This document shows positions 43,956-62,855 of a DNA stretch of 64,000 nt, piece after piece. This DNA comes from Minisyncoccia bacterium (GTDB lineage: Bacteria; Patescibacteriota; Minisyncoccia; Phycocordibacterales; UBA918). Made by a program: the position numbers and the translations under genes. Where the stretch lies: assembly GCA_964229335.1 (NCBI GenBank), contig CAXRCZ010000004.1, forward strand, positions 142,542 to 206,541. The letters are read 5' to 3'. The first letter of the stretch is position 1; the number at the start of each line of letters is the position of its first letter. The notes below the pieces were generated by a model. The model did no database searches. It had not been told where the DNA came from and worked only from the letters and a program-made list of their open reading frames with translations.

Positions 43956-44110
43956 TATAAACTGCACGAAAGGTAGGTTGGTGACGGACGATAGAAGGAG
44001 TGGTGGGGTGGAGTAGTAACGCTAATAGTTTTTATAGAAAGTAACTTGTGTCTAACCACTATTTCTTATTCGTAATTGCTGGAGGGGACTGTATATATAA
44101 ATATTTCCTA

Positions 44111-44138
44111 ATGTCGCACAATATATCTTTTGCGACAT
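44111..44138. other. Putative dif (Xer recombination) site at the replication terminus
   Basis: ATGTCGCACAA-TATATC-TTTTGCGACAT: 11-6-11 with 10/11 inverted arms; lies in a ~760-bp intergenic gap where gene orientation switches from + to -. Confidence 0.75.
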
Positions 44139-44468
44139 ATAATAAAAAGCCACTGTATACATACTATATCGTAACCAATAACTTAATCATAAAGAATACA
44201 AGAGCTTAGTGTCTTAAGTGATGCGACTACTGATACCTAAATTGATAGCTAGACGCCTTAAAATCGATTCTATGGCTTTGTATATTAATGATGGGAACAT
44301 GCTTATAGACATCTAAATTATCTTGGAGTAATAAAGTTAAAATATTAAAAATGGTTAGAAGAATGTGAAATATAAAATATCGAAATTTAAATTAGTATTG
44401 AAGTGCAAAATCACTTCTCTATTAATTAGTCCTCCACACTCACCTAGCCAGTCTTATAATTGGTAAAA

Positions 44469-44496
44469 AATTAATTATATATTTAATTATATAATT
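44469..44496. repeat. 28-bp AT-only repeat, copy 2 (overlaps 30-bp palindrome 44476-44505)
   Basis: Identical to 18505-18532. Confidence 0.85.
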
Positions 44497-44719
44497 AAAT
44501 ATATATATTCCACTCAGACTTCTCTTCCCTCACTAGCCCGCTCACAATTTACAATTTTGAAACATATATAGAATTTGTCAAATAGCCCAGAAGCCCGCTC
44601 TTTTGAGCGGGCTTCCATTCGGGTAAGTTCCTACGATGCACAGCATCGCACTTACATAATAGCTTGTTTTTTATAGGGTATCCACTGCTTATCCCCGGCT
44701 TTTCCCCAGTCAGTCAGCT

Positions 44720-46027
44720 CTAATATGCAGGAAGGTACAACATTGGGTCGATATAAGCTTCAGTGGCGGCTACTGGGGTCGTGGCAGCGCCACAGCTAGT
44801 GACAGTTTTGATTTGATTGAATTGACGAACTGACACACCCTCTTTAGCGTACACAGTAAAGTGTAAGTGAGGTCCAGTAGAAAATCCAGTGTTACCAACA
44901 TAACCAATAATCTCACCAGTGCTCACCTTTTGTCCGGGAGATACACCAATAACGTCTTGGTGAGCATATAGTGTAGTAAGTCCGTTGGCATGATCAATCA
45001 GTGTCCACTTACCCCATGAATAGCAGCCTGGCACAGCGTCTGTATTACCAGTTGCTCTTACCGTACCTGAAAGCGGAGCGTAGATTGGTGTGCCACGAGG
45101 GGCTCCAAAGTCCACACCAGGGTGATGGGCTCGACCGCCGTAGGCAGCTGCGTTGCGAGCCGCAAATTCTGTACCCCCAAAGTATTGAGTAATGATGATA
45201 CTTTTTAGCGGCCATGCAAACACCGCTGTACCAGCTGTAGGTACAGTACTAGGGTCAAGAATAAATTGTAGTTCTGATTCAAACGCTCGAAGCTCTTTAA
45301 GAATTTGTTCACGAGCAGCTTCTTTTTCAGCAAGAAGTTGCTGGTAAGTACGCTCTTCGTTTTTGGTAGCATTCAATAGCTCTGTTTGTTCTGCTCGGTT
45401 GTTAAGTAAAACCTCGTTTTGTTCACTGTACTGATCGCGTAGACTACTCAACTCCCCTCTTTTCTCAACGTTAGTATTTTGTTTCTCCTCCATTAGTGTC
45501 TTATAAGAGTCTAGTTCTAATACTTTTTGGGCTAGGTTACCGCGGACATTTTCGTGGGCATCATACGTACTCCAAAAGGCAGATAAATTATCTTCACTAA
45601 GTAGCAGTTCAATGAGAGAGTTGTCGCTTATTTTGTATTCAGCTCGAATAATCGCTGCAATGGCTGATTCAACAGTGTCAATATCCTCTTCAGTGGCGTC
45701 TATCTCGAGCAAAAGTTTACTGATTTGGAGGTCGGTGGAGGCAATTAAGTTTTCTGTTCTAGATATTTCAGCAGTAATCTTTTTTCTTTCGGTCTCCAAC
45801 CTATTAATGGCTGCTTGTAGTGTTTGCTTTTCAGCGCCAACTTCCTGTAGCTGTGCTTCATACTGGGCTATCTCAGCTTGAATTTGATCTAGCCGAGAAT
45901 TACGATCTTCAATTTGGTTTTGAAGCTTTTCGATTTCTGATTGTGCGCCGACTGGAGTAGGTAGCAGAAAAACACTCTGCGGTACCAGAAGTCCGATAAT
46001 AAAGGCTACGAACAATCGCTTCTTCAT
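44720..46027 (-). CDS. Coiled-coil M23 peptidase (EnvC/CwlO-like architecture)
   Basis: Signal peptide, long coiled coil, HPGVDF, YAH, GFSTGPHLHF. Confidence 0.9.
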   Translation of the reverse strand: MKKRLFVAFIIGLLVPQSVFLLPTPVGAQSEIEKLQNQIEDRNSRLDQIQAEIAQYEAQLQEVGAEKQTLQAAINRLETERKKITAEISRTENLIASTDLQISKLLLEIDATEEDIDTVESAIAAIIRAEYKISDNSLIELLLSEDNLSAFWSTYDAHENVRGNLAQKVLELDSYKTLMEEKQNTNVEKRGELSSLRDQYSEQNEVLLNNRAEQTELLNATKNEERTYQQLLAEKEAAREQILKELRAFESELQFILDPSTVPTAGTAVFAWPLKSIIITQYFGGTEFAARNAAAYGGRAHHPGVDFGAPRGTPIYAPLSGTVRATGNTDAVPGCYSWGKWTLIDHANGLTTLYAHQDVIGVSPGQKVSTGEIIGYVGNTGFSTGPHLHFTVYAKEGVSVRQFNQIKTVTSCGAATTPVAATEAYIDPMLYLPAY

Positions 46028-47481
46028 TACGCATCTATTTTAGCACAAGCTTTTTCAATGCGTCCAAGGGTTTCTTCCCGCCCTAATATATAAGCTAAGG
46101 TAAAGGGATCGATTGATTTTTCTCTTCCACTGAGCGCTGTTCTCATTGGCCAGAGCACTTCTCCCCTACCCAACTCTTCTGTTAAGGGCCAAACAGTATT
46201 TTTGATTGATTCAGGAGTTGTGAAGTCTGACGTGGTAAGTAATTCTACTAGTGCGTTGAATCTGTCTTTATACTGATCAAAAGATGAGTCATTTTTCCAA
46301 AGCAATAAAGAAGCTTCATAGCTAGGCATAGTAAATATGTAGTCGTACTCCCCTGCCTCAATCGCTGTAACGATATCTTTTTTATGATTTGCTCTTTCGA
46401 GGAGACTCGGGCAAAGTCGTTCGATTTTGTCAGAGTCGTCCATAGTGTTCGCAAGCTTGGTGTCTTTAAGTGCTTGGCTTACATACTCTTTTTTTTCTTG
46501 TGAAGACAGCTTAAGTAAGTGCTGTTTGTTAATCCAATCCAATTTTTCTTCATTGAAGCCACCACCTGATTTTTGGATTTTTTCAATTGAGAACTGCTCC
46601 ACTAGTTCTGTTGGTGTAAATATTTCCTTATCAGTACCCGGGTTCCAGCCAATTAAAGCAAGAAAATTAATCATTGCCTCTGGTAAGTACCCTTCTTTTT
46701 TGTAGTCCAAAATGTCCTTTGCACCATCTCGCTTACTCAATTTTTTCTTGCCGTCAGGTGCCATGATTGGTGGCAGGGTGACAAATACCGGCGGTTGAAT
46801 ATCGAGTGCTTCATAGAGGCTGAGATATTTTGGGGTGCTAGAAATAAATTCTTCTCCGCGCATTACGTGGGTGACTCCCATCTCAAGGTCGTCAATAATG
46901 TGAGCAAAATTGTAGGTTGGATACCCGTCAGCCTTAAGAATAATAAAGTCATCTAGCATTTCTTCCCCCGCTGTTAATTCACCTCGAACAGCGTCTTGCC
47001 AGGTATAACGTTTAATTTCTGGCACTTTAAAACGTAACGGCTGAGTACCGTCCCACTCACTGGTTTTTTGAGGCCTATGGTTTCGGTAAAGAAAAGGTTT
47101 GTTTTTGCCTACAGCTTCTCCTCTAAACTTTTCTACCTCGCTCTCTCTGTAGGGGTCTGGATACGCATAGCCATTTTTAAGTAATTCCAAAGCATACCCC
47201 TTGTAAATTTCTAGCCGCTCAGATTGGATACAGCTTCCAAAAGAGCTCTCTTTGTCAGGACCATAATCCCACTCTAGCCCAAGCCACTGCAGTGACTCCA
47301 TGGTGTGGGAAATAGCCTGTTCGACTTCTCGCTTTTTGTCAGTATCTTCAATTCGTAGAATAAAATCACCTTGGTTTTTTCTAGCCCAAAGCCAAGCATA
47401 CAAAGCTGTTCTTACACCTCCAACGTGCTGAAATCCAGTTGGTGATGGAGCGTATCTTGTAACTACAGTTTTTTTATTCAT
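46027..47481 (-). CDS. gltX: Glutamate--tRNA ligase
   Basis: RYAPSPTG.QHVGG, LRIEDTD, PTYNFA..IDD, KLSKR. Confidence 0.95.
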   Translation of the reverse strand: MNKKTVVTRYAPSPTGFQHVGGVRTALYAWLWARKNQGDFILRIEDTDKKREVEQAISHTMESLQWLGLEWDYGPDKESSFGSCIQSERLEIYKGYALELLKNGYAYPDPYRESEVEKFRGEAVGKNKPFLYRNHRPQKTSEWDGTQPLRFKVPEIKRYTWQDAVRGELTAGEEMLDDFIILKADGYPTYNFAHIIDDLEMGVTHVMRGEEFISSTPKYLSLYEALDIQPPVFVTLPPIMAPDGKKKLSKRDGAKDILDYKKEGYLPEAMINFLALIGWNPGTDKEIFTPTELVEQFSIEKIQKSGGGFNEEKLDWINKQHLLKLSSQEKKEYVSQALKDTKLANTMDDSDKIERLCPSLLERANHKKDIVTAIEAGEYDYIFTMPSYEASLLLWKNDSSFDQYKDRFNALVELLTTSDFTTPESIKNTVWPLTEELGRGEVLWPMRTALSGREKSIDPFTLAYILGREETLGRIEKACAKIDA

Positions 47482-48586
47482 GTTCTCTGGTAATACTGAT
47501 TAATGCAGTAGCTATCTTATTGGCAGCACCTGGTAAAGCTTGAGCTTTTGCGGCAGTTGCCATACGGTTATAGCGCTCTGAATCATCGATGATAGAGCGT
47601 ATTTCTTGACTTAGCAAGTGTGAGGTAAGATTTTTCTCTTCGATTACACTCCCTGCTCCGGAACTAGCATAGGTGTACGCATTTGTTCGTTGGTCATGAC
47701 TGATAGCTTCTGGAATAGGAATGATAATTGCCGGTTTGCCGTGCTCGGCTATTTCAAATAAGGTGGTGCTACCTGCTCTTGTTACCACTACGGAAGCAGC
47801 CTGCAGTAAAAGTGACACAGTCTCGGCAGGAAGAGTACCTTCTAGGTAATAACGTTTTTTCTGCTCTTCAGTTTCTAATATATTTTGAGCCACTTCCAAA
47901 ACTGCAGATTTTACTCTGTTACCACACTGATGAAACACTTGGTAGTCCTCTAATATTTCCGGCAAAGCTTCTAGCACGCTACTGTTGAGTCTCTCAGCTC
48001 CTAGTGAACCACCGGTAACATACACAAGAGGTAAGTTTGGATTAATGCCTAGTGCTGAAACTGGATCTGGATTTTTTTCTAGTAACTTTGATCTGATAGG
48101 AATACCTACCAAAGCAGTCTTTTCTTTTGGAAAGTAAGTTGCTACATCGTCGTAAGCAATTCCAATATAACGAGCAAAACTAGCCGCTAGTTTGTTTGAG
48201 AGTCCTGGTTTTGCGTCTGATTCATGAATAACTACTGGTATACGAAGCAATCTCGCTGCCTGAAGAACAGGAACACTAGCGTAACCTCCTTTACTGAAGA
48301 TTACGTCAGGATAAATTATATAAAGTTTCCACAAGGCAACAAAAAAACCAGCTATTGTTCTAAAAAAATCAAAGAAATTTTGAATTGAAAAGTATCGACG
48401 CAGTTTGCCGGCTGGGCAGGATATGAACTTCATTTTATAGGCATCGAGTTCCTTTTGGTCATAGGGCTCAGGTCCCATATAATAGAATAAAGAATCATTG
48501 GTTTGCGATTGAACACTTTCTGCTACCGCTAATAGTGGATAGAAATGACCGCCTGAACCAGAACCAACAAAGAGAATTTTCATCAT
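47474..48586 (-). CDS. murG: Lipid II GlcNAc transferase
   Basis: GSGGHFYP, KGGYAS, HESD..PG..N, GGSLGA, RAG, DQ..NA. Confidence 0.93.
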   Translation of the reverse strand: MMKILFVGSGSGGHFYPLLAVAESVQSQTNDSLFYYMGPEPYDQKELDAYKMKFISCPAGKLRRYFSIQNFFDFFRTIAGFFVALWKLYIIYPDVIFSKGGYASVPVLQAARLLRIPVVIHESDAKPGLSNKLAASFARYIGIAYDDVATYFPKEKTALVGIPIRSKLLEKNPDPVSALGINPNLPLVYVTGGSLGAERLNSSVLEALPEILEDYQVFHQCGNRVKSAVLEVAQNILETEEQKKRYYLEGTLPAETVSLLLQAASVVVTRAGSTTLFEIAEHGKPAIIIPIPEAISHDQRTNAYTYASSGAGSVIEEKNLTSHLLSQEIRSIIDDSERYNRMATAAKAQALPGAANKIATALISITREHE

Positions 48587-56976: not shown

Positions 56977-57927
56977 TTATATGTTAATACCAATAGCATT
57001 TCTCACCCGGCTGATAGTCTGGTTCGAGATAGCTTCTGCTTGAATGGCTCCATCTTTTAAAACCTCTTTTACGTACTCATCAGTGATACTAGCGCGCTTC
57101 TCGCGCATTGGGGCAATGAATTCCTCTAAATCAGCTGCTAGTAGTTTTTTGAGTTCACCATACTGACCCTTATTAGCTTCGTAGACTGGTGCCAGTTCAG
57201 ATTCAGTTTTTAACAATTGATGAATGGCATATACATGCTCTGGTCTGTCGCCAGTAGAATCAGTAACTATGCTCATCACTGCTTTATGAATATCTTCTGT
57301 TTCTCCGAACAAAGGTATGGTATTACCGTAACTTTTACTCATTTTTTGTCCGTCTGTACCTGGCACAACTCCGACGCCATCAAGAATCATTTCTTGGGGT
57401 TCTTTAAGAATGGTCTCGTTATACGCTCGGTTAAGCTTGCCGACCGCTTCACGAGTGTATTCAATATGTTGACGCTGATCTTCACCTACAGGCACTACAT
57501 CTGTATCATACAAAGCGATATCCGCGGCTTGAAGTAGTGGATAGGTAAATAAGCCTACGTTTGGCTCGAGACCTTTTGCCACCTTATCTTTATATGAATG
57601 CGCTTGCTGTAGTATTGGCACCGTAACCATACAGTTAAGTACCCAAGCCAGTTCCATATGATCTTGGTTATCAGATTGCCTAAAAATAATGCACTTGTGA
57701 GGATCTATCCCAACTGCGAGATAATCTTTTACGACATTAATTATATTCGCTTGAAGAAGCTCTGGGTCACGCAAACTAGTGAGTGCATGATAGTCAGCAA
57801 TCATTAAAATACTGTTGTATTCAAGATAGGTATCAAGAAAGGGTTTCAGTGCTCCAAAATAGTTACCGATGTGCAAATCACCAGAGGGTTGTAGTCCAGT
57901 CAATAGTGTCTTTTGTGACGTCTTCAT
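56977..57927 (-). CDS. trpS: Tryptophan--tRNA ligase
   Basis: QPSG.LHIGNY.GA, YPLLQAADI, VPVGEDQ, KMSKS. Confidence 0.95.
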   Translation of the reverse strand: MKTSQKTLLTGLQPSGDLHIGNYFGALKPFLDTYLEYNSILMIADYHALTSLRDPELLQANIINVVKDYLAVGIDPHKCIIFRQSDNQDHMELAWVLNCMVTVPILQQAHSYKDKVAKGLEPNVGLFTYPLLQAADIALYDTDVVPVGEDQRQHIEYTREAVGKLNRAYNETILKEPQEMILDGVGVVPGTDGQKMSKSYGNTIPLFGETEDIHKAVMSIVTDSTGDRPEHVYAIHQLLKTESELAPVYEANKGQYGELKKLLAADLEEFIAPMREKRASITDEYVKEVLKDGAIQAEAISNQTISRVRNAIGINI

Positions 57928-57972: not shown

Positions 57973-59658
57973 CTACTTCTTGGTCGAGGCTAGAGGGAGT
58001 TCTAGAGTAAAGCATGAGCCTTTCCCTTCTCCTTCCGAAGTGGCTGTGATGTCGCCTCCCATTTCCTCAGACATTTTGTGGGCTACATACAGACCAAGTC
58101 CCGTTCCAGAGGTGTTTACTTGATTAGCATTATCAGCGCGGCTGAATTTTTCAAATAGTGCGCGTAGGGTCTTTTCGCTCATACCTACACCGGTGTCACT
58201 AATTTCTACGAAGACTTTCTTTTGCCTTATATTATCGTACACGCTCACATTTATTGAACCTTCCGGTGTGTATTTGAGTGAATTATTTATTAGATTATGG
58301 ATAATTTGGATAGTCTTACCGACATCTGCGGTTACTACTCCCCTGCTCTCAAGCCTGCTTCGGAAAAGAAGCACTAGGCCTTTTCTCATTGCTTCAGCTC
58401 GCAAGTCCTCGCAGATACTTTCGACTTTTTCTTTTAGATTAAAGTCACTAAGGTTGTACTTCATGTTGCCACTTTCGATTCGAGATACATTCAAGTAATC
58501 TTCTACTGCCATGGCCATCAATCTGGCTGATTCAGCGATACGCTCTGAGGCCTCTATAGCCTTTTTCGGCATCTTTCCAAAACTACCCTCGACCAACATT
58601 GAAGCGTAACCACGCATAGCTGTCAGTGGACTGCGCAATTGGTGAGAAGCAATCGAGACAAATTCAGACTTAAGCTTATCTAATTGTTCTAGTCGCTCAT
58701 TAGCATGGGCTAGATCTTTGGTTAAGACTTCTAACTTCTCTCTTTGCAAAATTTCTTTTTTAACACTACGGTTAAGTAAAAGACCTGAGAGTAAGGTAAG
58801 AGCTAGCGTAACTGAACCAAGGATAAAGGCAGTACGAGTTTCTGCAATAGTTATCAAAGAGCCAACTAAGGTAACCAGCGCAACTAATAGTGCCTGAGTT
58901 GTTAGTAGGCCAACGTTGAACGCTTTAAATCTTGTCATGAGGATGCCGATAAAGAGTAGGAACAAAGCCATTCCAAAGAACCCATAAAACTCTATATTCG
59001 AATCCTCTACTAATCCAGCGTTTGCTAAGTATGAGGCGAACCATACAAAGAAAAAGAAGAAAGCAATGAAAGACTGGATACCAGCCCCCATTAGAATCAA
59101 TTGCTTCTTGAACTTCGGTTCAGCAGAACGATAGCGGCTTATGAAAATAGCGGCTGACCAAATCATCGCCAATCCTCCTAATGCTGTGTAGTACAGGTTG
59201 TACCAAAAGCCTTCAAATCCAAAAGCGTCGCAGTCAGAAATTTGAAACCCACTTACGCTGTAATCTGTATGTGCCAATAACAGAATAGGTAGAAGTAAAA
59301 TCACAAAGACAGCTTTGGTGTGAGGTGAGACATCTTTTTTATAGGCAAACGCATAAGAAAAGTACACTGCATAGACAGCAATTAAAGCAGAGATTATGCC
59401 AAATAGCGGCCATAGCGATAACAAGAAATCACTATGAATGTTAGTCCAGGCGATAAGGTTTATGGTTGTCCAACCCGCAAAGAGAATGGAGATAATAAAT
59501 AGTAGCTGGTTTGGTAATTGTTTTGGGCTGTTGACTAGCAAGAATATACCGATACCCAATGCCAACAGTGCCACTGGGATATGAGAATAGTACAGTAAAA
59601 GAGGTAGGTCTGAAGCAAAAAAGAAATAGGTTGGTTCTGCAAAATAGTGACAAATCAT
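57973..59658 (-). CDS. Sensor histidine kinase with N-terminal multi-TM (HisKA_7TM-like) domain
   Basis: 7+ hydrophobic helices; H-box SHQLRSPL, N-box NLINNSLKY, DTGVG, GTGLGL; no receiver domain. Confidence 0.9.
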   Translation of the reverse strand: MICHYFAEPTYFFFASDLPLLLYYSHIPVALLALGIGIFLLVNSPKQLPNQLLFIISILFAGWTTINLIAWTNIHSDFLLSLWPLFGIISALIAVYAVYFSYAFAYKKDVSPHTKAVFVILLLPILLLAHTDYSVSGFQISDCDAFGFEGFWYNLYYTALGGLAMIWSAAIFISRYRSAEPKFKKQLILMGAGIQSFIAFFFFFVWFASYLANAGLVEDSNIEFYGFFGMALFLLFIGILMTRFKAFNVGLLTTQALLVALVTLVGSLITIAETRTAFILGSVTLALTLLSGLLLNRSVKKEILQREKLEVLTKDLAHANERLEQLDKLKSEFVSIASHQLRSPLTAMRGYASMLVEGSFGKMPKKAIEASERIAESARLMAMAVEDYLNVSRIESGNMKYNLSDFNLKEKVESICEDLRAEAMRKGLVLLFRSRLESRGVVTADVGKTIQIIHNLINNSLKYTPEGSINVSVYDNIRQKKVFVEISDTGVGMSEKTLRALFEKFSRADNANQVNTSGTGLGLYVAHKMSEEMGGDITATSEGEGKGSCFTLELPLASTKK

Positions 59659-60050
59659 ATATCAGTATCGTTAGACGAAGACATTTCTAGCTGAAGATTT
59701 GGCTGGTCAAACTCTTTCAGATTTTCGCAACTGTCAGGGTCATCGTAGCAGTATTCAACTTCACATTGCACACTACCCCCATCGCAAGTAGCAGCTGCTT
59801 CACAGTCAGTAATATCTGCACCACATAGCGGATACAAATCATTTGCGTGCTTAGTTATGTATTTGTAGTAATAAATGTCATCACAAGAGTCTTCTTCGCA
59901 ATAGTAAAAACATTCTTCAGTATAAGGGTCACACTCTGCCTCGTAGGTGACGTTGTAATCTTTGAGATACCAGAAGCGATAAAAGCTAGCGAGCACCGCA
60001 AAAAGGAGTAAGGGAATAATTGTAAACAACAGTATTCGCTTTTCTAACAT
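59655..60050 (-). CDS. Membrane-anchored Cys-rich acidic exported protein
   Basis: One TM then 10 Cys; stop overlaps the kinase start (ATGA). Confidence 0.75.
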   Translation of the reverse strand: MLEKRILLFTIIPLLLFAVLASFYRFWYLKDYNVTYEAECDPYTEECFYYCEEDSCDDIYYYKYITKHANDLYPLCGADITDCEAAATCDGGSVQCEVEYCYDDPDSCENLKEFDQPNLQLEMSSSNDTDI

Positions 60051-60109
60051 GCTACTAAGATTATAGCAGCTAGAACATAGAGTAACTGAAAGATTTAAAC
60101 AGTTCTCAA

Positions 60110-60916
60110 TTATTTCTCAATGAATTCATCTAGATGTTTTAAGACATTTTTAGGGTATGAATTTATATCGGCAATTTTAGCGCTCGGCTTTTGGACTAGT
60201 GGTGCAAGCAATGGTTTGTGGCCAAATCTCTTTTCAGTTTTTTTCATTGCTGGCAAGACAACTTGTTGTACGAAATCAATTTCATCAGGTTCGTAAACCT
60301 CTAACATTATTCCATGCACAAGTAATAGAGCGAGCATATATTCGTATAATTCAATCAACTCGCCACGGTGATGCCGATTGACCCAGCCTGACTCGTCAAC
60401 GACGCGAACATTTTTAGGGAAAAGTTTTTTTGTTAAATAGGTATGCAGATTGGTTAGTTTTTTACCATTCAATAACATTGCTTCTTCAAAAGATTTGCCT
60501 TGTTCTGAATTTTGGTCAGCTACCCGACGATATTGAATTATTCCAGCACCGTTCTTTGATTCACCGACAATAATTGGGAGTTTGAGTAGGTTTCGTTTCA
60601 GAGAACTATATGAAGTAACTTTATCCTTCGGGTCTTCACCAATTATTATTGGATAGTTATATTTTTTCACTTGGTCTATAAAAAACAACGTCTCGTAGTC
60701 AGGCGTGGCCAAATATCTTGATAGATAAAAAATCGGTGCCTCACCTTTAAAGTGTTCAGGAATGTCGTTATTTAAAAAAGATTCTACCTCTTTTATCAAG
60801 TCCTGGTTCTTGCGCCGCTCGTTTATTATCTCTACAGCATCATCAAGATCAGTATGAATCTCATCAAGTAGACGCTTGTATCTAAATTTTTTAAGTTTGT
60901 CGTAGAGAAACCTCAT
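60110..60916 (-). CDS. Uncharacterised cytoplasmic protein, probable enzyme (268 aa)
   Basis: Soluble; motif-like segments LSRYLATPDYE, EDPKDK, HGIMLE; 1 nt after the DMT gene. Confidence 0.75.
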   Translation of the reverse strand: MRFLYDKLKKFRYKRLLDEIHTDLDDAVEIINERRKNQDLIKEVESFLNNDIPEHFKGEAPIFYLSRYLATPDYETLFFIDQVKKYNYPIIIGEDPKDKVTSYSSLKRNLLKLPIIVGESKNGAGIIQYRRVADQNSEQGKSFEEAMLLNGKKLTNLHTYLTKKLFPKNVRVVDESGWVNRHHRGELIELYEYMLALLLVHGIMLEVYEPDEIDFVQQVVLPAMKKTEKRFGHKPLLAPLVQKPSAKIADINSYPKNVLKHLDEFIEK

Positions 60917-60917
60917 A

Positions 60918-61886
60918 TTAAGTATTGCTATGTAAAGCCAGTACTACTACCCCAACAGCAATCAAACCGACTCCTAGACTAACCATTATCCAACCGCGTC
61001 TCTCGGTACTATCTCTAGATATAGATGCGAGTCCGGTTGAGGATAGTAAAAATCCAATCACACCCACAGCAATCGGCTGGGTGGCATTAAAGGCGGTTAC
61101 AATCATTACTGAGGGACCTAAGGTATTGGCTAAATGAGTCATATAAACACCACCGGCATCCAAAACTTCGTTACCTGCTTGCACCGCTAGTGCCTTGTAA
61201 TTAGCATTATCTAGGAATGAGTTGAACTGAACTCGGTAGGGTTTCCAAGCAATATAAATGGCCGTGCCGGTCAAAAACATACCTACTCCTGTCCAAAGAC
61301 CCACTAGAGTAAAACTGTTAGATAAGGCGGCGTCTTTAAATAACACATAAATAGCCGCTATCACAATGGTTGAGAGAGCCATTAGACCCAGGGTACCAAA
61401 GTTTACTTTTGTGCTGTCATCATCCTCCTTCTCAATTGAAAGCAAGATACCACCAGCAACTATGATAAGGGCGCCTATAATTTGAATTGGGGGTGGTATC
61501 ACACCATAAAAACTCTCTAGCACTAGCGCAAATATGGGAACAGCCTGAATTAAAGGACCAACAATGATGGCGCCGCTTCTTTCGGTAGCGTATAAGTAAG
61601 GTATTAACCATAGCACTTCAAGAAAGCCAATGAATAGGGCTTTAAAAATAAGTGAGGTGTCGTTAAAAAAGGCAATGCTATTTAGTAGACCGTAGCCAAA
61701 AAAACCAATTGCAATGACTACACCAAAGAGTGAGGAAATTAATACCAATGTCCCCACTTCTTGATCGTACTCACTCAGGAGAAGCTCATCTACATAGTTT
61801 CCAGCCCCATACAGAATACTAGCTATTACAATTAACCAAACCCATGGCTGACTGAATAGCTGAACTGCGGCGAGTAGTAGTTCCAT
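60918..61886 (-). CDS. EamA/DMT-family transporter
   Basis: About 10 TM in two 5-TM halves; PIFALVL, QIIGALIIVAGG. Confidence 0.85.
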   Translation of the reverse strand: MELLLAAVQLFSQPWVWLIVIASILYGAGNYVDELLLSEYDQEVGTLVLISSLFGVVIAIGFFGYGLLNSIAFFNDTSLIFKALFIGFLEVLWLIPYLYATERSGAIIVGPLIQAVPIFALVLESFYGVIPPPIQIIGALIIVAGGILLSIEKEDDDSTKVNFGTLGLMALSTIVIAAIYVLFKDAALSNSFTLVGLWTGVGMFLTGTAIYIAWKPYRVQFNSFLDNANYKALAVQAGNEVLDAGGVYMTHLANTLGPSVMIVTAFNATQPIAVGVIGFLLSSTGLASISRDSTERRGWIMVSLGVGLIAVGVVVLALHSNT

Positions 61887-61888
61887 GA

Positions 61889-62284
61889 TTATAGATTATG
61901 GTTTGGATACCTGGTTCCTCTGTCTATTATCTGACAGTCGTAATCTGTGGTTCCAAAGGCGTGGCTCAAATAATTAAGAATAGTATCGGAATCTAACTCA
62001 TCCTGGCAGGTATACACATCTGCAGTCACAAACCCTCGAGCCGGAAAGGTGTGGAATGATATATGACTTTCGGCAATCATCACAAACCCGCTGATTCCTC
62101 CAGGATCTTTCTCATTCAAGGGACCTACCTCTACTACCATTTCATCAGAAATGGTGTGCATATCGAGTTTTTTAGGTAAATCTTGAAGGATTTTGTGCAA
62201 CTGCTCCTTATCGGCTAGTTTGGTTGAATCACAATTGTACGCATCAAATAGTAAGTGAACACCAAATGTCATCGTTTCATCCAT
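61889..62284 (-). CDS. speD: S-adenosylmethionine decarboxylase proenzyme
   Basis: GVHLLFD, GISGFVMIAE|SHISFHTFP (pyruvoyl cleavage site), DVYTC. Confidence 0.92.
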   Translation of the reverse strand: MDETMTFGVHLLFDAYNCDSTKLADKEQLHKILQDLPKKLDMHTISDEMVVEVGPLNEKDPGGISGFVMIAESHISFHTFPARGFVTADVYTCQDELDSDTILNYLSHAFGTTDYDCQIIDRGTRYPNHNL

Positions 62285-62348: not shown

Positions 62349-62855
62349 TTACACTAAGAACAAAATCAAGAGTGGTAAGAGTAACCACCAGAAAAAATAC
62401 TCCTCTGGTGCAAAGATTGACTGTATCGGTGTGCCTGGAGTGAGAAATTCTGTGACGGGTAAAACTTGGAAACTAAAGACCATTACCACAACGGTTGCAG
62501 CCGCGCTTAGAATGAGTTTTTTGCCAAAGCTTTCAAACTTTTTCTCACGGAACTCGTCTGGCATTACACGAGCTACTAGCAGTGTCGATATTACTGTGAA
62601 GACTGCGAACAAGCCAAGTTTTGCAGCTGCGATACTTTTACTTGATTCAAATGAATTGAAGATGAGGTCGTAGTATGGAAATACTAGTGAGATTAAGAGG
62701 GCAAAGTATAATCCAACAATAATATTAATAACTGCCTGACGTCCTTTGGCTATTACTATGAAAAACATAATACCTAGGACAATTAGCAAGTACGCCATTT
62801 CGTACAAGAAATCTACTAAGAACGATGTGTTTGTAAGAAACGCCAAGTCAGGCAT
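62349..62855 (-). CDS. Hypothetical integral membrane protein
   Basis: About 5 hydrophobic segments; follows dnaJ. Confidence 0.7.
   Translation of the reverse strand: MPDLAFLTNTSFLVDFLYEMAYLLIVLGIMFFIVIAKGRQAVINIIVGLYFALLISLVFPYYDLIFNSFESSKSIAAAKLGLFAVFTVISTLLVARVMPDEFREKKFESFGKKLILSAAATVVVMVFSFQVLPVTEFLTPGTPIQSIFAPEEYFFWWLLLPLLILFLV

Follow-up and report, generated by a model that had tools for sequence, protein, structure and literature searches.

In the Vibrio quorum-sensing pairs CqsA/CqsS and LuxM/LuxN, the gene of a small-molecule enzyme lies beside that of a membrane-sensing histidine kinase. The pherotype loci agrBDC of Staphylococcus and comQXP of Bacillus are fixed loci, in which the catalytic half of the kinase is conserved and the sensor half and upstream genes are hypervariable. 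For genomes of the candidate phyla radiation (CPR), adjacencies of CqsA-, LuxI- and PpyS-type genes with kinases have been predicted, and the synthase-kinase architecture in this group is already published (Bernard et al. 2020, PMC7567580). Here we describe a related locus from a Minisyncoccia bacterium, located in a 64,000-nt stretch of contig CAXRCZ010000004.1 (the window); the genome holding it comprises 741 kb and is 98% complete. Five minus-strand genes at 57973-62284 encode a SpeD-family pyruvoyl decarboxylase, an EamA/DMT transporter, a 268-aa protein of an unannotated family, a cysteine-rich membrane protein (Cys protein) and a histidine kinase. Our favoured explanation, to which we assign a probability of about 0.45, is that the region between dnaJ and trpS is a slot with exchangeable contents, and that these five genes occupy it here as a private cassette for making, exporting and sensing an amide-linked amine signal. 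An open reading frame check of the window recovered all five co-directional genes where the initial annotation had placed them. Its spacings were measured as given, with 2 nt between speD and the EamA gene, 1 nt between the latter and the 268-aa gene, and a 4-nt overlap (ATGA) of the Cys-protein and kinase genes; 59 nt separate the 268-aa gene from the Cys-protein gene.

The 268-aa gene was found at 97 loci, of which 33 have at least 3 kb on both flanks and 25 are left at less than 70% identity. Among these 25 non-redundant loci, the kinase gene is a neighbour in 21, the Cys-protein gene in 20 and an EamA gene in 19 (within 4 kb, on either side or strand), with all three present in 17; speD and a SET gene occur in five each, and dnaJ is nearby in 11. 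At 50% identity, 14 loci remain, with the kinase in 10, the Cys protein in 10, EamA in 8 and all three in 3. Gene order and strand are reshuffled among the loci. The conserved core consists of the 268-aa protein, the EamA transporter, the Cys protein and the kinase, and speD is accessory. The initial annotation had proposed co-occurrence as a check, which held for EamA and the kinase but not for speD, present at 11 of the 97 loci overall. The make/export/sense architecture it suggested is supported far beyond chance by the co-occurrence and by the slot comparison described below. Of 401 genomes sampled evenly across the phylum, six (the present one included) contain a clear member of the 268-aa family, next to the kinase in four, while the sensor profile matches 93 genomes, eight of them strongly. 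Among 11 genome records, the homologous loci with taxon names belong to Patescibacteria.

The kinase was present in 22 of 24 same-genus genomes. Twenty of these were taken, leaving out one weak and one truncated match, and four strong matches from the order were added, which gives 24 relatives. The left border of the slot is a gene for a conserved 168-aa membrane protein after dnaJ (62349-62855, minus strand), which lies outside the cassette and occurs at 18 of the 20 same-genus loci irrespective of what the slot contains; trpS (56977-57927, minus strand) forms the right border. Between the two, each relative has a different cassette before the same kinase, whose catalytic half is 53-70% identical to that of the window within the genus, whereas the sensor half is 24-55% identical or unalignable. 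This is the fixed-locus pattern of agrBDC and comQXP, but here there is no peptide precursor and whole non-homologous enzymes are exchanged. The genes in the slot form a kit for amine chemistry, with SpeD-like proteins at nine loci, PvlArgDC at one, HSS-like proteins at two, a PF01916 protein and SpeE at one each, amidinotransferases at four, SET proteins at eight and PrmA/PRMT-like methyltransferases at two, together with EamA or another membrane protein. One of the amidinotransferases (L046) matches the PDB with an E value of 4e-71, and those of L241 and L244 match L046.

Candidate amide-forming enzymes are encoded in nine of the slot loci. Three have a member of the 268-aa family (L234, L236, L251), four a GARS-like ATP-grasp protein (L233, L250, L253, L254) and two a PF09924 protein (L235, L239), and two such candidates are never found in the same slot cassette. 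L235 shows the layout of the window with PF09924 replacing the 268-aa gene, beside speD, EamA, the Cys protein and the kinase, and neither an ATP-grasp nor a PF09924 gene lies within 4 kb of the 268-aa gene at any of the 97 family loci. We take PF09924 (MprF C-terminal/VlmA-like) to belong to the GNAT/Fem aminoacyl-tRNA transferase class; with its GNAT fold it is unrelated to the 268-aa family and a functional analogue at most. GNAT/Fem-class proteins are aminoacyl-tRNA transferases, as stated in PMC12945691. Because it alternates with ATP-grasp and PF09924 enzymes, the 268-aa protein may represent a third way to form an amide. The five sensors most similar to that of the window all occur in amide-former cassettes (5 of 5, compared with 4 of 19). 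Seven of the 9 amide-former loci have the Cys gene, against none of the other 15 slot loci; when the three 268-aa-family loci are left out, the numbers are 5 of 6 and 0 of 15. As the slot relatives are not independent, we give counts rather than p-values.

Some loci deviate from this layout. In L225-L227, genes for a SpeD-like protein, EamA and PF09924 lie beside a different, split sensor, composed of a stand-alone membrane protein, a ~95-aa protein and a soluble kinase. L228 has the same split sensor beside a speD-like gene, EamA and a homolog of guanidinoacetate methyltransferase. In SET-type cassettes, an unnamed membrane protein of ~200-290 aa takes the place of EamA and may be a second exporter family (L139:8423-9034, L140:6023-6649, L240, L246, L249, L256 and G000 C11:15568-16158); a similar-looking membrane domain is fused to the N-terminus of the 268-aa-family domain in P0129. 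Two kinases per slot in L237, L239 and L245 suggest that more than one signal is sensed.

The 268-aa gene (60110-60916, minus strand) belongs to a family of 770 clusters at 50% identity, of which the best 150 were examined; a word-index search gave 36 related proteins. No Pfam match was found in 35 and 138 members scanned and no NCBIfam match for the protein itself, and a comparison of the family with PDB sequences returned only artificial repeat proteins at E>1. The predicted structure is confident (pLDDT 94.8). Compared with 48,161 chains, it matches BshC best (Z 8.7, root-mean-square deviation 4.9, 225 residues aligned), followed by class I LysRS (Z 8.2, deviation 4.1, 185 residues) and further by PPAT, ATP sulfurylase and TyrRS. 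The top 43 matches are all HUP proteins by title, with middling scores, and a Foldseek search with the same model gave nothing at E<=0.001. According to the model, the family has a HUP fold (Rossmannoid core) without the HIGH and KMSKS motifs. HIGH-like sequences occur in 2 and KMSKS-like sequences in none of 138 members, neither among the conserved columns. Where HIGH would be located, in the loop after strand 1, 106 of the 138 members have the motif R-x3-[TS]P[ND]-x-E. The family shares the HUP core with BshC, class I LysRS and MshC and probably also with CDPS (Z at most 5.0), which may have lost HIGH in a similar way, but differs from all four by the lack of a sequence match, by its own motif and by having no anticodon domain.

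Membership in four known families was considered and not accepted. The CDPS motifs HxxxGxS and YxxxExP are found in 0 and 1 of the 138 members, none of which matches the CDPS Pfam family. The core matches BshC, but 268 residues stand against ~540 with a coiled-coil, and there is no BshC Pfam match; the activity of BshC is itself unproven in vitro according to PMC4360819. Aminopropyltransferases of the SpeE type were dismissed because PF01564 is absent from the 138 members and the model matches HUP proteins, not the SAM-binding fold. The GNAT family was likewise rejected; some ESM Atlas rows carried this name (weak, 0.89-0.90, low recognition), but the model is HUP. Among 16 longer homologs scanned, two are fused to a SET domain and three to a GNAT domain, one of these below cut-off. 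In P0160 the 268-aa-family domain carries at its C-terminal end a cysteine-rich domain that matches no Pfam family, and L073 and L075 have two divergent family copies within one cassette. A HUP fold without HIGH is known from tRNA-synthetase-derived amide formers, an analogy with CDPS only (PMC2922099). From its fold, its fusions and its alternation with the other candidates, the 268-aa protein is probably an amide-forming (amino)acyl transferase or ligase. Given amide formation, an aminoacyl-tRNA and an ATP-activated acid have about even chances of being the donor.

The SpeD homolog (61889-62284, minus strand, 131 aa; PF02675, E 1.8e-29) retains the pyruvoyl Ser, His and Cys of AdoMet decarboxylases (S73, H78 and C93). 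The Gln, Thr, Phe and Tyr diagnostic of the ODC type (SpeDC) are absent from it; L036 and L242 have them and agree in this with the ODC halves of PMC10407285 Fig. S5. According to that work (Li et al. 2023, PMC10407285), a SpeD homolog unaccompanied by speE often decarboxylates arginine or ornithine, and CPR members are among the examples. The initial annotation had noted no spermidine synthase in the window, and PF01564 has indeed no match anywhere in this genome, which settles its proposed check for speE elsewhere. The family was also missing from five of five other genomes, and in a further five relatives there was one weak partial match over cut-off, in a 698-aa frame. At other loci, relatives 50-57% identical to the SpeD of the window lie next to a PF01916 gene or give way to PvlArgDC, with the same ATP-grasp gene alongside (L233 and L250). 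The former is the case in L248 (55% identity), where the PF01916 match does not separate SpeY from DHS; SpeY couples agmatine (PMC13625781). The neighbour in L228 (48% identity) is the guanidinoacetate-methyltransferase homolog (E 2e-32; a weak PF01564 match is far poorer). Because of the missing speE, the exchange with PvlArgDC and the PF01916 and guanidinoacetate-methyltransferase neighbours, we favour an arginine decarboxylase (SpeDA type), and these sequence contexts make agmatine the more probable product. As in the SpeDA and SpeDC proteins described in PMC10407285, the SpeD of the window is of class 1b, its genome has no speE and relatives stand beside a DHS/SpeY-family gene; unlike these, it is predicted to work with an exporter and a receptor instead of serving bulk polyamine synthesis. 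The EamA transporter (60918-61886, minus strand, 322 aa; PF00892, E 6e-7) is the predicted exporter of the product.

The Cys-protein and kinase genes are preceded by the extended -10 promoter element TGCTATAAT (60060-60068, minus strand), which ends 9 nt before the Cys-protein start; a consensus scanner missed it, as there is no -35 element. Of 37 non-redundant homologous loci, 27 have the pattern TGnTA[TC]AnT ahead of the Cys gene, where shuffling predicts 0.66 (at most 3), so that the -10 box of the initial annotation is real and conserved. Before other starts it is found in 3 of 48 (kinase), 7 of 69 (268-aa gene) and 6 of 45 cases (EamA). The Cys protein (59655-60050, minus strand, 131 aa) has a single membrane anchor and an acidic outer domain of ten cysteines, six invariant and four near-invariant across homologs; after the anchor, 27 D/E residues face 5 K/R. 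It co-varies with the sensor of the kinase (distance correlation, rho 0.82, n=33), and from these sequence features it is probably a co-receptor of the kinase, predicted to serve a cationic ligand. The kinase (57973-59658, minus strand, 561 aa; PF00512 and PF02518) has intact H, N, G1 and G2 boxes and no receiver domain. It had been described as a 7TM histidine kinase. The kinase domains are present; the structure model, however, predicts nine helices for the sensor region, and the HisKA_7TM family PF16927, to which the protein is probably related, matches 4 of 34 homologs (best 1.7e-7) but not the kinase of the window. Residues C3, Y24, W71, W83, C143 and Y156 are invariant in the sensor, and a Foldseek search with its model lists GPCRs and rhodopsins, none at E<=0.001. 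In L246 (8505-10319) the kinase has an extra N-terminal helix that by eye resembles the anchor of the Cys protein, which a profile did not confirm. A cysteine-free accessory membrane protein accompanies a second kinase-sensor subtype in L007, L030, L035, L040 and L053.

No response regulator lies in the window, as originally noted; the three receiver domains of the genome are all on other contigs, and two of them adjoin the genome's other two kinases. The remaining one, of 124 aa, stands alone (G000 C6:31078-31389, L002) between pilB-like and pilT-like genes, named from their sequences, in a type IV pilus operon. Being the only receiver in the genome without a neighbouring kinase, it is a candidate partner, and an output through it is a tentative proposal.

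The wider kinase family was surveyed at 48 of the weaker loci, chosen for their higher scores and available upstream sequence. In 42 of these a gene for a small-molecule enzyme is located at most 2.5 kb upstream of the kinase, and we therefore consider the family to be generally paired with synthesis genes. The enzymes include ThiF/nitroreductase sets, PlsC-like, UbiA-like and LuxI/FeeM-like proteins, methyltransferases, a CqsA-like class I/II aminotransferase, and PLP and pyruvoyl decarboxylases. In a very common cassette of the distant kinases, ThiF and a nitroreductase accompany a protein of ~500 aa that matches no Pfam family and by eye resembles CoA ligases, sometimes with an amino-acid dehydrogenase or hydrolase (L147, L153, L157, L159-L161, L163, L164, L167, L173, L177, L180, L182, L187, L188, L193). 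The adjacency to LuxI/FeeM-like and class I/II aminotransferase genes resembles the CPR pairs of PMC7567580. From those pairs as well as from CqsA/CqsS and LuxM/LuxN, the locus of the window differs by its unnamed HUP-fold synthase, its dedicated exporter and Cys-rich accessory protein, the predicted polar amine-amide signal and a kinase without receiver. EamA is not mentioned in the main text of PMC7567580. No description of the 268-aa family, of the alternation of three enzyme types, of the Cys-rich partner or of the amine kit was found in the accessible literature, subscription papers and bioRxiv supplements lying outside this search; Table S4 of PMC7567580 may list some of the kinases.

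In the favoured explanation, the 268-aa enzyme would link a small amine to an acyl or aminoacyl group; in the cassette of the window, this amine would be agmatine from the SpeD homolog. EamA would export the resulting N-(amino)acyl-amine, and the Cys protein together with the kinase would sense the exported amide. Cassettes that encode no decarboxylase would draw the amine from the host or the surroundings, so that the signal would indicate contact with a host in addition to cell density. That the locus is a circuit around a self-made signal of whatever chemistry is likely. Several observations weigh against the explanation as a whole. Gene order, co-occurrence and the exchange of cassette genes and sensor halves were directly observed and the enzyme fold was modelled, whereas product, export and kinase response are predicted from the genes. 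The fold matches are middling, a common fold by itself shows no function, and the median isoelectric point of the family (6.6) is not basic. The kinase is not nearby in 4 of the 25 loci and all partners are missing in 3, and 4 of the 8 strong-match kinases stand without the 268-aa gene, having SET and a membrane protein, or EamA alone, beside them. In L079, an ATP-grasp gene lies 5.2 kb from the 268-aa gene. Twenty of the 25 cassettes have no speD, and the decarboxylase families PF02675, PF01862 and PF02784 were all missing in 4 of 5 speD-less genomes tested; in these, therefore, the amine would be foreign or the acceptor something else. A test for strict enzyme-receptor co-evolution, such as a private lock and key would show, was negative, the distance correlation being weak (rho 0.19, n=46; -0.10 among 18 loci with dnaJ); this fits an exchange of receptors among cassettes making one signal class.

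The missing decarboxylases and the weak co-variation are also what would be expected if the enzyme modified a host amine, EamA moved it and the kinase read a host compound, that is, if the locus served host or environment sensing or amine disposal without a self-made density signal. The receptor genes behind their own conserved promoter and the kinase of G190, with EamA alone beside it, agree with this, but most slot fillings encode complete-looking synthesis routes beside the kinase, and where cassettes differ the sensor halves differ too, with the catalytic half retained, which leaves such a function unlikely. Somewhat less probable still is a CDPS-like or other tRNA-dependent enzyme needing amino acids only, with tailoring by SET, GNAT or formyltransferase proteins and speD as unrelated cargo. 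It would account for the HUP fold without HIGH, the matches to CDPS structures (Z 4.6-5.0, below unrelated HUP rows), the loop residue after strand 1 that is kept as Thr (75%) or Ser (22%), the lack of a decarboxylase in most cassettes and the SET and GNAT fusions; the motif and Pfam scans described above were negative, however, and next to decarboxylases ATP-grasp and PF09924 enzymes can stand in for it. The 'formyltransferase' neighbour in L143 matches weakly and was disregarded. The initial annotation had instead proposed that SpeD makes decarboxylated S-adenosylmethionine (SAM), which the 268-aa protein turns into an aminopropyl signal. The SpeD of the window passes the TIGR03330 cut-off with its catalytic residues kept, it lies in a tight three-gene operon, and a true SpeE is found in the slot of one relative (L242). 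Both prolines that could be AdoMetDC-diagnostic (DPGG, HTFP) are present as well; PMC10407285 describes the diagnostic Pro only as not conserved in arginine decarboxylases. The TIGR03330 match, the prolines and the SpeE of L242 also count against agmatine as the amine, and the SpeD of the window may yet be a true SAM decarboxylase. Nevertheless, the aminopropyl chemistry is probably wrong, as speD is outside the core, the 268-aa fold is HUP rather than that of a SAM-binding aminopropyltransferase, ornithine-decarboxylase-type SpeD proteins occur at two other loci (L036, L139) and the gene context points to arginine. A mere insertion hot spot, whose genes have no common function, is the least probable alternative. 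Many loci have the dnaJ-trpS position by descent and some 268-aa genes stand alone (L085, L142, L143), but the same partners recur reshuffled in unrelated positions and classes (L084, L087, L092, L144-L146), the genes undergo fusion and the kit is restricted to amines. Beyond the amine-amide cassette favoured here, a bolder version is doubtful: a fourth route to tRNA-dependent amide formation, by a tRNA-synthetase-derived family convergent with ATP-grasp and GNAT-fold enzymes, making a new class of aminoacyl-polyamine autoinducers that a GPCR-like kinase would detect with a RAMP-like Cys co-receptor, at a combinatorial locus of amine 'dialects' that would signal host contact and control type IV pili.

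Elsewhere in the window, the cumulative GC skew peaks and then reverses at ~44000-48000, possibly marking a replication terminus or origin.

Patescibacteria are unable to produce most metabolites but retain and diversify this slot locus. If the favoured explanation is true, hundreds of unannotated enzymes of one family would gain a function, and a polar amine-amide class would be added to the bacterial signals. The swap series, with three enzyme folds and one receptor type, offers ready controls for cross-talk. It would also open a short route, testable in E. coli, to how episymbionts count themselves or detect their host.

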